Source: Candidatus Jordarchaeales archaeon (GTDB lineage: Archaea > Asgardarchaeota > Jordiarchaeia > Jordiarchaeales > Freyrarchaeaceae). From it: DNA of 32,000 nucleotides. The notes beneath the pieces were generated by a model. It saw only the letters and a list, made by a program, of their open reading frames with translations. It was not told the origin of the DNA and searched no databases. The stretch's first letter is position 1; each line of letters starts with the position of its first letter. Both the position numbers and the translations under genes were made by a program. Positions 10,567-15,504 of the stretch are shown piece after piece. The stretch spans positions 794,499-826,498 of the forward strand of contig JAWAHN010000001.1 of the NCBI GenBank assembly GCA_038889235.1. Direction: 5' to 3'.

Positions 10567-11679
10567 TTAAGGGCGAACTACCGCGTCTACAGCTATTTGC
10601 CATTCCCTAGGCGCTGTGGAGCGAACACGCCTAACATTTAAGACTTTCACAAGAGAAGCGCCTACTTCACCAAGCTGTTTTTCAAGAAATTTGACGACGC
10701 TATCACATGCATCCTTGTCCCTACCGAACTGGTAGTAGTGTATGACGCCACCTTTTTCCTTTAAAGCCAAGCATGCCACGTCAATAAATTTACATGCTGA
10801 ACTTGGAAGGTTCATTATCACGTGATCGGCTATCCGCTTTAGTTTGGCGTTAACTACCTCCCTGCAGTCTCCTAGGTGAGGATGAACTAAGCCGGATACC
10901 TTGTTCAGTTTAATGTTCTCTTCAAGAAGTTGTATGGCAAACGGGTTGATGTCTATGGCGTGCACGATGCCGCTCCTCATCTTTGCTATCAAAATGGAAA
11001 ACGGTCCTACTCCTGCGAAAAGATCGACAACGACCTCTCCTGGGTTAACCTGGCTGGCTACCCTAACCCGCTCCCCTGACAGGCGAGGGCTAAAATAGGT
11101 GTTGGCAACGTCAACCTTGAAGATACAACCATTCTCCTTGTGAAGGGTTATCGTCCGCGCTTCTCCGGCTATGTGAACTAGACGCCTAACTCTGTAAACT
11201 CCATTCACACGACCACCCTTAGCAAATACGGCTTTCACGTGACGATTTGATCTTAGAATAGCATCACCGACTGCACTCCTAAATTCCCAAATCTCAGGAT
11301 TCAGCTCTACAATGGCTATATCGCCTATAATGTCAAGGGAGTGAGGAATGTGGGTGAGAAAATTTTTGGGGACTACTTTTTCAAGTAGCTCACTAATCTT
11401 AGGTTGCTGTTCCCTTACGGGGAAAGAGTAAAAACAAACGTGAAGAAAACCGGATACCATCCTTAAGCGTTCGAGCTCTGGTTTAAGAAGAGGGCGGGTT
11501 ATGGGAAAGAGAACTAAAACACAACATGAGTCCGATGAGCTTGGAAACACATCTACGTCGACTCTTTCAACTTTGAGCTCATTACTCAAAACACTAAGTC
11601 CAGATAAAAGCCGGCGAATTGGCTCAGCAATTTTGGAACAAACAGCAATGCTAAGAGAGGAACGTCTCATAATTAACAC
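10567..11679 (-). CDS. trm5: tRNA G37 methyltransferase, Trm5/Met-10+ family
   Basis: DIIGDIAIV, TLHKENGC, YFSPRL, VVDLFAGVGPF, AIDINP, VIMNLP. Confidence 0.88.
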   Translation of the reverse strand: MLIMRRSSLSIAVCSKIAEPIRRLLSGLSVLSNELKVERVDVDVFPSSSDSCCVLVLFPITRPLLKPELERLRMVSGFLHVCFYSFPVREQQPKISELLEKVVPKNFLTHIPHSLDIIGDIAIVELNPEIWEFRSAVGDAILRSNRHVKAVFAKGGRVNGVYRVRRLVHIAGEARTITLHKENGCIFKVDVANTYFSPRLSGERVRVASQVNPGEVVVDLFAGVGPFSILIAKMRSGIVHAIDINPFAIQLLEENIKLNKVSGLVHPHLGDCREVVNAKLKRIADHVIMNLPSSACKFIDVACLALKEKGGVIHYYQFGRDKDACDSVVKFLEKQLGEVGASLVKVLNVRRVRSTAPREWQIAVDAVVRP

Positions 11680-11747
11680 TCCAAAATTTTCTGAAAATAA
11701 GTGCTACATCCGAAAACAAGTTATTGGCGGGCCGCGTGGGATTTGAA

Positions 11748-11776
11748 TTCGCGGGACTTAGACTGGCTACAGCCCA
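11748..11776 (-). other. 29-nt tRNA intron at position 53/54 (T arm)
   Basis: CGUG-[GG^U]-GGGCU...AGUCC-CGCG-[AA^U]: central helix CGUG/CGCG; removal restores GGGUUCAAAUCCC. Confidence 0.85.
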
Positions 11777-11807
11777 CCCACGACCACCGGGTTAAGAGCC
11801 CGGCGCT

Positions 11808-11823
11808 ATAGGCTCTACGCGAT
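11808..11823 (-). other. 16-nt tRNA intron at about position 22/23 (D arm)
   Basis: AGGU-[AG^A]-UC-gcgua-GA-GCCU-[AU^A]: central helix AGGU/GCCU, two 3-nt bulges; removal restores GGUAGAGC. Confidence 0.85.
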
Positions 11824-11876
11824 CTACCTAGCTAAGCTAGCGGCCCGCAGCCTACTGAAAAAAATGGAAAATGGTG

Positions 11877-11889: not shown

Positions 11890-12020
11890 GATGGGACGAA
11901 CAGGTAAAGAAAACAATAAAACGGCTATGGGGGATAGTATTCTAGCAAAACCCGGTAGAAAAGTGAGCCGAACGAAAACTGTACTTGTCTGCCAGAGTTT
12001 TAAGGAAGGATGGTGAAAAT

Positions 12021-13813
12021 ATGAAACTGCGATCCCCTATAGTTGTCGTCTTAGGGCATATCGATCATGGCAAAACATAGCACGGTTTCGTGCTATGGGC
12101 TAAACTTCGCTGTTGGATGCCATTAGGGGGACAGCGGTTCAAGCTAAAGAAGCAGGTGGTATTACTCAGCACATAGGAGCGTCTTTTCTGCCTTCAAATG
12201 TCATATTAAGCCTCGCTGAAGAGCTAGTTAAAAGATTTAACGTAACGCTCGACATACCCGGCGTGTTGGTTTTAGACACTCCGGGTCATGAGGCTTTTTT
12301 CAATCTTAGGGCGCGTGGGGGCGCCATTGCAGACATTGCCATATTAGTTGTAGACATCATACGTGGTTTTCAAACACAAACCTACGAATGTATCAACTTG
12401 CTGAGAAGTAGACGCGTTCCATTCCTGGTAGCAGCGAACAAAGTGGATTTAATTCCCGGGTGGCGTCCTTCCGGCTCCACATCAATTCTTAAGGCTCTTG
12501 CCTTACAGGATGATTACGTTAAAAAGGCTTTAGATGAAAAAATCTATGGACTAATGGGTGAGCTCTCCGCCTGTGGCTTTAACTCTGAAAGATTTGATAG
12601 GATACGGGATTTCACCAGAACTATCGCCATAGTACCTACAAGCGCTAAAACAAAAGAGGGCATTGCGGAGCTAATGATTGTTCTTGCCGGACTAACCCAG
12701 CAATACATGAGGAAAAGGTTAACTGTTTCTGAGGGGGAAGGTAAAGGCGTTGTTTTAGAAGTCAGAGAGGAGCCTGGACTTGGAACGACCATAGACGTCA
12801 TACTTTACGATGGAGTTATCCATAAAGACGACCTGCTGGTTATCGGTGGGCTTGACGGAGCTGTTGTGACGCGTGTTAGGGCGTTACTGCAACCCAAGCC
12901 GCTTGACGAAATGAGAGATCCAAGGGAAAAGTTTGATGCGGTTAACGAGGTAGCTGCTGCAGCTGGAGTGAAAATTGCGGCCCCATACCTTGAGAAGGTT
13001 ATAGCAGGTGCACCGTTAAGAGCTGTGCGCAGCGAAGAAAAAGTGAGAGAGGCTGCACATGAGGTGCAGCAGGAAGTTGAAAGCATTACCATAAGGGGGG
13101 ATCGCACAGGGGTCGTGATCAAAGCAGATACACTTGGGTCACTAGAAGCCCTTGTAAACTTTTTCAAGGAGAGGGGTGTACCTGTCAGAATAGCGGATAT
13201 AGGAGACGTCTCCAAAAGAGACGTCATGGAGGCGGCAGTTGTATCCGAGAAAGACCCGCTTCTAGCAGCCATTATAGCTTTCAATGTCAAAGTGTTGCCT
13301 GACGCGGAGGAGGAAGCTCAAAAGTACGATATTAAAATCTTCGAGGAAAAGATAATTTACAGATTGTTTGAAAAGTATAACGAATGGGTTATAGAAAAAC
13401 GAGAAGAAATGAGAAGACAGGCAGTCAAGGATTTGATTAGGCCTGCAAAGATAAAGATACTTCCGGGTTACGTTTTCAGGCATAGTAAGCCTGCCATAGT
13501 CGGAATCGAAGTGCTTTCAGGAGAAATTAGGCCAAGATATCCTCTGATGCGGGAAGATGGACGCGAAGTAGGAGAAATACTCCAAATACAAGATAAAGGA
13601 GAGACTAGAGAATATGCTCGAAGAGGAGAGCAGGTTGCAATTTCAATAAAGGGGCCTATCGTTGGAAGACACATCAATGAGGGGGATGTGTTATATACGA
13701 ATATGCCGCTGAGCCACATAGAGAAGTTTAAATCCGAGCTTGCGGAAGAGCTGACATCCGACGAACTTGAAACACTTAGGGAAATTGAGCGTGTTAAGAG
13801 ACAAAAAGGATGA
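12021..13813 (+). CDS. infB: Translation initiation factor aIF5B (IF2), two exons (12021-12074 and 12104-13813), 587 aa after splicing
   Basis: MKLRSPIVVVLGHIDHGK in frame +3, then TSLLDAIR...EAGGITQHIGA...DTPGHEAF...NKVD...KADTLGSLEA in frame +2. Removing 29 nt restores the G1 P-loop. Confidence 0.95.
12075..12103 (+). other. Putative 29-nt BHB-type intron in infB mRNA
   Basis: GGCA-[AA^A]-CAUAGCACG-guuu-CGUGCUAUG-GGCU-[AA^A]. 9-bp perfect stem, two AAA bulges, central helix with 3 of 4 pairs (G-U, G-C, C-G, A.G mismatch); in-frame UAG at 12078-12080. Confidence 0.82.
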
Positions 13814-13823
13814 AGTGGGAATT

Positions 13824-14768
13824 ATGCTAGGCGTGGGTGTAGTGGGAGTGGGATTTTGGGGAAAACAGCATGCACGCAATTTTGCGTCTATTGAGAAAAC
13901 AAAGTTGGTTGCTGTTTGCGATGTGAGGGAGGAAGAGGCACGTAAAGTTGGGAAAACGTACGGAGTAGATTGGTATACAGATTTAGATGAGTTCCTAAGA
14001 CGGGAGGACATGGATGCTGTGAGCATATGTACCCCAACGTCAGCGCATTTTGAAGTAGCAACGAAAAGCATTCTTTCTGGAAAACATGTACTTTTGGAGA
14101 AACCCATGACTGCTGACGTAGAAAAAGCCCTCAAACTTGTGGAGTACGCGAAGGAGCAAGGAGTATTTCTCATGATTGGATTTATCGAAAGATTCAACCC
14201 AGGTGTTTTAAGGGTCATTAAAGTGTTAAAGAGCGGCGTCATAGGCGACCCAGTAATGAGCATTTCTAGGAGAGTTGGGCCATATTGGCCTGACCGCGTT
14301 AAAGATGTAGGTGTAGTTAGCGACTCTGCAATTCACGACATAGATCTTGCCCGGTACATTTTTAGAAGCGAGATTGCCTCCGTATATGCTGTTGGTGGGC
14401 GCTTAAAACACAGGTTTGAAGATTACGTAGCCATAATGCTTCACTTAACTAATGGGTTGAGTTGTGTTATAGAGGCGAACTGGTTGACGCCGCGTAAAAA
14501 AAGAGAGCTTATTATTACTGGCGAAAAAGGAATAATAAAACTTGATTATCTCTCGCAAAAAATCAGCATAGAAAGTGACGAGTGGGAAATGAGTAGTTCA
14601 GCGGAGTGGGAGGAACCACTTAGAAAAGAACTAGAGTATTTTGCTGAATGCATTATAGAAAGAAAGCAACCCTACCCGTCTGGCGAAGACGGAGTAAAGG
14701 CATTGCAAGTCATAAACGCCGTGCTAGAGAGCATGAAACAGAAAAAAGTTGTCGAACTAAACTGGTAA
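13824..14768 (+). CDS. Gfo/Idh/MocA family NAD-dependent oxidoreductase
   Basis: VGVVGVGFWGKQH, CTPTSAHF, HVLLEKP, IGFIERFNP, DSAIHDID. Confidence 0.92.
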   Translation: MLGVGVVGVGFWGKQHARNFASIEKTKLVAVCDVREEEARKVGKTYGVDWYTDLDEFLRREDMDAVSICTPTSAHFEVATKSILSGKHVLLEKPMTADVEKALKLVEYAKEQGVFLMIGFIERFNPGVLRVIKVLKSGVIGDPVMSISRRVGPYWPDRVKDVGVVSDSAIHDIDLARYIFRSEIASVYAVGGRLKHRFEDYVAIMLHLTNGLSCVIEANWLTPRKKRELIITGEKGIIKLDYLSQKISIESDEWEMSSSAEWEEPLRKELEYFAECIIERKQPYPSGEDGVKALQVINAVLESMKQKKVVELNW

Positions 14769-14844: not shown

Positions 14845-15504
14845 TTAGAGTTCCATTACAGATAAGAGCTTGTTTAATCCTTCTCCTGTTTTAGCACTGG
14901 TTAAAACGACTTTAATGTTGGGATTTATTGCGAGAGCGTCATTGGCAACTTCCTGTGGGTCTACGCCGACAACGTCTTTGAGGTCAATCTTGTTTATAAC
15001 CGCTATGTCTGAGTTCTTGAAAAGTAGGGGGTGTTTTTTGACAACATAAGGGCCTTCAGTAATACTGACGACGACTATTCTTTTATCGCACCCCAAAACA
15101 TAGTCTGCTGGGCAAATCAGATTTCCAACATTCTCGACAAACAACACGTCTACATTATCCAGATTAATTTTCTTCAGTGCTTCTTTAAGGAAAAACGCGG
15201 TTAGTGCACATTCCCTTCCTGTGTTAATCTGCAATGTTTCTACTCCATGCCGAGAAATTCTGTCAGCATCTATCCTGGTCGTTACGTCTCCAGTTATAAC
15301 TGCAATACGGTACTTTTTCTTAAGTACTTCGACTATTTTTTCCAAGAGAGAGGTTTTTCCTGCACCGACGCTTCCAACTATGTCGAAGCTTTTGATGTTT
15401 CTTTTCCTGAAAATGTTGTTGATTTCACTCGCAGCTTTCTCGTTTGCTTTAATTAAGTTCTCTTCTATTGAAACTATGCTTAACTTATCTTCCATAGGTC
15501 TCAT
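14845..15504 (-). CDS. hypB: HypB/UreG-family metal-insertion GTPase
   Basis: GSVGAGKT, VITGD, ENVGNLICP, INKIDL, SAKTGEG. Confidence 0.9.
   Translation of the reverse strand: MRPMEDKLSIVSIEENLIKANEKAASEINNIFRKRNIKSFDIVGSVGAGKTSLLEKIVEVLKKKYRIAVITGDVTTRIDADRISRHGVETLQINTGRECALTAFFLKEALKKINLDNVDVLFVENVGNLICPADYVLGCDKRIVVVSITEGPYVVKKHPLLFKNSDIAVINKIDLKDVVGVDPQEVANDALAINPNIKVVLTSAKTGEGLNKLLSVMEL

Follow-up and report, generated by a model that had tools for sequence, protein, structure and literature searches.

A 29-nt insert in the P-loop codons of the aIF5B gene of Candidatus Jordarchaeum, very probably a spliced pre-mRNA intron of the EndA type

The window analysed here, a stretch of 32,000 nt from the genome of the Asgard archaeon Candidatus Jordarchaeum (2.14 Mb, 95% complete), carries the gene for the initiation factor aIF5B in two portions separated by a 29-nt insert (Table 1). 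The first portion, exon 1, starts with an ATG at 12021 and ends in the residues GHIDHGK; a Shine-Dalgarno-like sequence precedes it, and either GGTGA or GAGGTG was also found 5′ of the ATG in three other Jordarchaeum species. When we compared exon 1 with the N-terminus of the uninterrupted aIF5B of the sister genus, 17 of the 18 residues were identical. The Pfam domains GTP_EFTU, GTP_EFTU_D2, IF-2 and GTP_EFTU_D4 were found in exon 2, which aligned end to end with residues 30-597 of PDB 5fg3 (E = 1e-200), an entry titled 'Probable translation initiation factor IF-2' that we take to be the aIF5B of Aeropyrum pernix. This alignment begins, at residue 30, exactly past the P-loop of 5fg3.

The protein-coding neighbours of aIF5B, namely a TRM5/TYW2-type tRNA methyltransferase, a GFO/IDH/MocA oxidoreductase and a HypB/CobW-type GTPase, are all uninterrupted. 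An apparent tRNA-Lys(CUU) gene lies upstream on the opposite strand, with a 7-bp acceptor stem (GGGCCGC/GCGGCCC), an encoded CCA, the anticodon loop CUCUUAA and the T-loop TTCAAAT, and it contains additional sequence in the D-arm region and within the T-arm. ARAGORN and Rfam (gathering thresholds) returned no match in the window, and this intron-containing tRNA-Lys(CUU) beside aIF5B was missed as well.

Table 1. Coordinates of the aIF5B locus in the window and of related features elsewhere
Feature	Position	Strand	Description
TRM5/TYW2-type tRNA methyltransferase	10567-11679	-	neighbour
Apparent tRNA-Lys(CUU)	11725-11846	-	~122 nt; ~170 nt upstream of aIF5B
Shine-Dalgarno-like GGTGA	12012-12016	+	4 nt 5′ of the exon 1 ATG
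aIF5B exon 1	12021-12074	+	18 codons, MKLRSPIVVVLGHIDHGK; last codon is the P-loop (G1) lysine
Central helix H, 5′ strand GGCA	12069-12072	+	exonic; faces 12098-12101
Bulge 1, AAA (AAT in two relatives)	12073-12075	+	predicted 5′ cut 12074/12075
Putative intron	12075-12103	+	29 nt; in-frame TAG 12078-12080; frame-shifting
Inner helix h′	12076-12097	+	12076-12084 with 12089-12097; 9 perfect bp; loop GUUU 12085-12088
Central helix H, 3′ strand GGCU	12098-12101	+	intronic
Bulge 2, AAA	12102-12104	+	predicted 3′ cut 12103/12104
aIF5B exon 2	12104-13813	+	569 codons plus stop; from TSLLDAIRG to the C-terminus
GFO/IDH/MocA oxidoreductase	13767-14768	+	neighbour
HypB/CobW-type GTPase	14845-15504	-	neighbour
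EndA paralog 1	L041:1192-1779	+	196 aa; closest PDB chains 3p1z_B, 3ajv_B, 2zyz_B
EndA paralog 2	L042:1477-2061	-	195 aa; without the His
RtcB	L043
aIF2-gamma P-loop intron, putative	L044:1305-1333	-	29 nt; DHG/KTT; TGGC aat ... GCCA aaa; 4/4 central pairs
aIF2-gamma second insert, apparent	L044:1348-1380	-	33 nt; stop-containing; GH/VDHG; 14 nt upstream
GatE insert	L049:366-396		one of five inserts of 27-34 nt
DnaG-like insert	L045:1179-1212	-	one of five inserts of 27-34 nt
LeuD-like insert	L046:190-218		one of five inserts of 27-34 nt
Radical SAM insert	L047:613-640		one of five inserts of 27-34 nt
FAD oxidase insert	L048:589-615		one of five inserts of 27-34 nt
aIF5B GGI/TQ introns, putative	L007, L011, L015, L054, L068, L070, L071		in frame or not; genera g17 (4/4 genomes), g9, g71 and one contig

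When the frame is read from the ATG at 12021 with the insert in place, it gives MKLRSPIVVVLGHIDHGKT and is closed by the TAG at 12078-12080. The remainder of aIF5B is a 566-aa ORF (12113-13813) in a different frame, which is shut immediately upstream by a TAA (12101-12103). This ORF starts with TTG, does not include the G1 motif and matches GTP_EFTU only from profile position 52 onwards. Excision of 12075-12103 joins the codons GGC AAA/ACT TCG CTG TTG GAT and yields a 587-aa aIF5B with an intact GHIDHGKT. We found no second aIF5B gene in the host genome, at its completeness of 95%. Read-through of the UAG with Pyl, or a single frameshift, was considered and rejected, as all three frames are closed inside the insert.

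The insert has the anatomy of a relaxed bulge-helix-bulge (BHB) motif. Its stem CATAGCACG (12076-12084) is perfectly complementary to CGTGCTATG (12089-12097), with GTTT as the loop, and the pair closing this inner helix h′ has a probability of 0.96 in a local fold. In the same fold the pairs of the central helix GGCA/GGCU, which consists of G.U, G-C and C-G with an A.G mismatch, reach 0.83-0.85, and the 96-nt segment around the insert folds with a z of -5.3 relative to shuffles. Two 3-nt bulges thus flank a central helix of 4 bp in a relaxed form (three pairs and the A.G). As for the outer exon-exon helix h adjoining bulge 2, the BHB scan gave 0 bp and the local fold 3 bp across an internal loop. 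Because the outer helix is absent beside bulge 2, the motif is of the relaxed HBh′ class and not a canonical hBHBh′.

By the rule established for archaeal tRNA introns, EndA cleaves either strand 3′ of the second bulge nucleotide. Applied here, that rule places the cuts after 12074 and 12103 and produces GHIDHGK/TSLLD and the 587-aa aIF5B. From the host genome alone, every 29-nt deletion in which exon 1 ends at 12072-12078 encodes an identical protein; base 12075 is a T in two relatives, however, which limits the junction to 12072-12074 if the Thr is retained, and only the 12074/12103 junction agrees with the BHB cutting rule. The alternative register UGGC/GCUA, found in the minimum-energy fold with four perfect pairs and 3 outer pairs, was rejected, as it leads to a 31-nt excision and to the wrong frame. 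The junction between K and T coincides with a trypsin site, TSLLDAIR is impossible from the unspliced ORFs, and LRSPIVVVLGHIDHGK would be expected along with it. Much of this anatomy had been proposed in the first-pass annotation: we re-read the TAG at 12078-12080 and the displaced remainder of the gene without a proper N-terminus, confirmed base by base the 9-bp stem, the AAA bulges and the GGCA/GGCT helix with its one A.G mismatch, and obtained by translation the same GK/TSLLD junction and 587 aa from cuts after 12074 and 12103. Its description of a BHB-like intron holds for the bulges, for h′ and for the cutting rule, but has to be narrowed to a relaxed HBh′ with three of four central pairs and no outer helix.

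A stop directly after a potential take-off codon and a stable hairpin at the gap would also suit a translational bypass of the T4 gene 60 type, in which the ribosome would take off from ACA (12075-12077) before the UAG, hop over the hairpin and land on ACU (12104-12106). Near-matching ACA and ACU codons lie 29 nt apart in the host genome and in genome G001. In G002 and G003, however, TCA (Ser) stands against ACG or ACA (Thr), a mismatch despite the kept insert; of the other candidate pairs, GGC/GGC lands before the TAA and AAA/AAA in the wrong frame, so that matched take-off and landing codons were not found. T4 gene 60 shares with aIF5B the stop and the hairpin at a coding gap, while the matched codons are not conserved in aIF5B. 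The inserts that we describe below in other genes and at the GGI/TQ site of aIF5B also follow the endonuclease rule and not codon matching. We know of no report of translational bypassing in archaea, and we consider this explanation very unlikely.

The insert was found at the identical site in all four Jordarchaeum species, whose aIF5B proteins have 83-85% identity to that of the window, and also in two JGI contigs from separate metagenomes; the sequences flanking it have diverged. The HGKT motif is uninterrupted in the sister genus, which belongs to the same family, and in the neighbouring family, for which six genomes were read. When 400 genomes from across the phylum were surveyed, Jordarchaeum alone showed a broken P-loop among the matches listed (150 of 385). 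Short palindromic inserts can be assembly errors, but since the insert occupies the same site in four species and two metagenome assemblies, neither a misassembly nor a pseudogene confined to one strain can account for it, and a sequencing or assembly artefact, refuted by four species-level genomes and two JGI contigs with diverged flanks, retains practically no probability.

Exon 1 showed 6-9 synonymous against 0-2 non-synonymous codon differences per species pair. In the intron, 27 of the 29 nt do not vary among the four species, as opposed to 22.5% of the third codon positions (binomial P ~8e-16) of the four aIF5B genes, in which 86% of the first and second codon positions are invariant. 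Variation within the intron is limited to the third nucleotide of bulge 1, which is unpaired, and to one nucleotide of the loop. All four species share the exonic GGCAAA, while the intron-less sister genus has the synonymous GGG AAG. Taken as comparative evidence, these patterns show exon 1, the intron and exon 2 all to be functional. That both exons look intact had been claimed in the first-pass annotation, and it agrees with their open frames and with the mostly synonymous changes of exon 1 in four species. The alignment of infB from relatives, which the same annotation had put forward as a check, shows the insert in four species and not in the sister genus. In the stem, the paired positions are identical in all four species, and with no compensatory change in the aIF5B P-loop intron the alignment argues neither way on the structure. 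As no paired base varies, the helices of these four species are not proven by covariation.

These comparisons also bear on the possibility that aIF5B is simply broken, either as a pseudogene or as a P-loop-less protein made from the TTG at 12113. Gene callers would give just the 566-aa ORF 12113-13813. A GTPase without a G1 motif would not bind GTP. The gene is the sole aIF5B in the genome, purifying selection has kept both exons open in four species, and exon 1 retains its ribosome-binding site and shows mostly synonymous changes, all of which argue against a broken gene, an outcome to which we give very little credence.

The conservation of the aIF5B intron exceeds both its structural need and the conservation of an intron in aIF2-gamma in the same genomes, and such strict sequence conservation may reflect an additional or a different constraint. 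Conservation beyond what a BHB needs is also one of two features that would fit some other mechanism, such as an unknown RNA-processing enzyme with specificity for the sequence of the conserved hairpin, or a small mobile insertion, flanked by a target-site duplication (GGCAAAAC / GGCTAAAC), which part of the population would lose from its DNA; the other is a direct repeat of 8 nt, almost perfect, at the insert borders. However, a direct repeat is expected from the near-palindromic central helix together with two AAA bulges. The insert has no further copy in the host genome and so is not a repeated mobile element, and it is present in all six independent assemblies examined. Another mechanism of this kind seems to us improbable, and we keep to splicing of the pre-mRNA by the tRNA-type endonuclease.

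The enzymes that such splicing would call for are encoded in the host genome. We found two EndA paralogs, 196 and 195 aa long, and in either of them Pfam detects both endonuclease domains. The PDB chains closest to the longer paralog are presumably EndA catalytic subunits of Aeropyrum and Pyrobaculum. Judged by eye from the sequences, the 196-aa EndA keeps the Tyr/His/Lys and the 195-aa EndA is without the His; the former appears catalytic and the latter does not. This pattern suggests a heterotetrameric (alpha-beta)2 EndA, and RtcB is also encoded (a 600-bit match). Asgard and TACK archaea have been described to possess an (alpha-beta)2 EndA with an L1 loop, which is linked to broad specificity and to cleavage of relaxed motifs (PMC5829648). 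Judged by sequence, the host would thus have an EndA able to cut relaxed motifs as well as RtcB.

The aIF5B intron is one of many such introns in the host genome. When we scanned this genome with the same cutting rule, it restored at least six other genes, those of aIF2-gamma, GatE, a DnaG-like protein, a LeuD-like protein, a radical SAM protein and an FAD oxidase. Their inserts are compact with AA bulges, and in the FAD oxidase the insert is flanked by FAD_binding_4 profile positions 1-80 and 93-139. In all seven cases, aIF5B and aIF2-gamma included, the spliced junction would read NNNN AA/A or T. The scan, which combined BHB motifs with ORF restoration over the whole genome, was hardly above its controls with shifted cut sites (for example 261 matches against 229-255) and is unfit as a census, and follow-up was confined to candidates that were compact and had both AA bulges and a strong hairpin. 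Among these, C2, a TtuA-like N-terminus, proved to be a false positive. When BHB inserts were sought at GK[ST] codons under relaxed criteria, the result was mostly noise, from which only aIF5B and aIF2-gamma stood out.

In aIF2-gamma, the P-loop insert is accompanied by an apparent second insert, and the two would leave a 14-nt micro-exon between them. The P-loop insert of aIF2-gamma is also present in G002, G003 and the sister genus (G004), with strongly diverged sequence and length, and was absent from the neighbouring family. Given its occurrence in the sister genus and its divergence, the aIF2-gamma intron is older than that of aIF5B and evolves differently. We saw no similarity by eye between the two introns, which speaks neither for nor against a transfer from one paralog to the other.

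The aIF5B gene itself has a second intron site, in the switch I codons (GGI|TQ), where introns of 17, 29, 30 and 33 nt were found in one metagenome contig and in members of three or more further Asgard families. Seven loci passed our scan of this site and two further loci were without a match. The introns that passed are of the canonical hBHBh′ type, with 4/4 central pairs, 3-nt bulges and an outer helix of 3-6 bp, and in each of them the same cutting rule restores GGITQH. Between L070 and L071 we observed one compensatory change in the stem, from C-G to U-A.

Several known systems resemble the aIF5B insert. In XBP1 and HAC1, the RNA is cleaved by IRE1 and joined by RtcB or a tRNA ligase, and the removal of 26 nt in XBP1 changes the frame. 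What we propose for aIF5B is like XBP1 and HAC1 in having a small intron flanked by a stem-loop, non-spliceosomal cutting, tRNA-type ligation and a change of frame; XBP1 and HAC1 differ in their nuclease IRE1, in their motif and in being a regulated stress switch. Closer still is the intron in the pre-mRNA of cbf5, reportedly described by Watanabe in 2002 and by Yoshinari in 2006. In the literature searched, BHB-type introns in archaeal coding sequences have been described only for cbf5 (PMC2738675; references in PMC5829648), and no report of an aIF5B intron or of introns in Asgard protein genes was found. The cbf5 intron of Crenarchaeota (Aeropyrum, Sulfolobales, Desulfurococcales; Yokobori 2009, PMC2738675) is likewise short and within the coding sequence, with an often relaxed motif; its hosts have a hetero-oligomeric splicing endonuclease, and it is present or absent among close relatives, as is the case here. 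In contrast to cbf5, the aIF5B intron lies in P-loop codons, in an Asgard archaeon, has 29 nt, shifts the frame and is located 18 codons from the start; moreover, the splicing of cbf5 was shown experimentally, while the aIF5B intron is known here from DNA. By its features, the aIF5B intron is of the cbf5 type, with both the gene and the phylum being new. In tRNA genes, the Jordi-, Freyr- and Atabeyarchaeia carry an extreme load of introns at non-canonical sites (PMC11291895; bioRxiv 10.64898/2026.10.13.758758). These tRNA introns belong to the same lineage as the aIF5B intron, have presumably the same enzymes, a similar mini size and often relaxed motifs. However, the substrate in aIF5B is an mRNA in which the cuts must keep the frame, and introns in protein genes are not covered in PMC11291895 or in bioRxiv 10.64898/2026.10.13.758758.

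We conclude that the 29-nt insert is real and very probably a spliced aIF5B pre-mRNA intron of the EndA type. Cleavage and ligation themselves we infer from the anatomy, the frame restoration, the conservation, the single copy and the enzyme genes set out above. In the transcript, the exonic GGCA would pair with the intronic GGCU and expose the two AAA bulges on opposite strands beside the 9-bp hairpin. The two-subunit EndA would then cut at 12074/12075 and 12103/12104, and RtcB would ligate the exons to GGC AAA/ACT, which would restore the G1 motif GHIDHGKT. Since the unspliced mRNA would give only a 19-residue peptide, aIF5B synthesis would depend on splicing. The gain of the intron would date to the ancestor of Jordarchaeum. 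That its removal from the mRNA is obligatory had been proposed in the first-pass annotation and gains support from the comparative evidence, the single copy and the encoded enzymes. The further proposal that translation initiation is thereby coupled to EndA activity holds no further than the trivial point that making aIF5B would require splicing, and similar introns are also present in metabolic genes.

A sequence-specific role for the excised 29-nt RNA or its hairpin, for example in a checkpoint on the initiation GTPases, and a wider picture in which Jordarchaeia are the first archaea with EndA-type introns common in their protein genes, appear to us rather doubtful. The sequence-specific role is suggested by the conservation of 27 of the 29 nt, by the fast evolution of the aIF2-gamma intron and by the position of the site 18 codons from the start. 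Such a checkpoint could tie the supply of aIF5B and aIF2-gamma to the capacity for tRNA splicing, and its setting would be a Jordarchaeum lineage in which nearly all tRNAs need splicing.

The Asgard archaea are the group closest to eukaryotes, and aIF5B, a universal single-copy translation GTPase, is here interrupted in its P-loop. If splicing holds true, standard gene calling mis-annotates essential genes, with aIF5B being N-terminally truncated, and tRNA machinery would splice mRNA routinely in at least one Asgard lineage. It would also be of interest to see how splicing stays ahead of translation, given that coupling is usually assumed for archaea. The P-loop and switch I codons of translational GTPases would then look like recurrent insertion sites and provide a handle on the gain of BHB introns.
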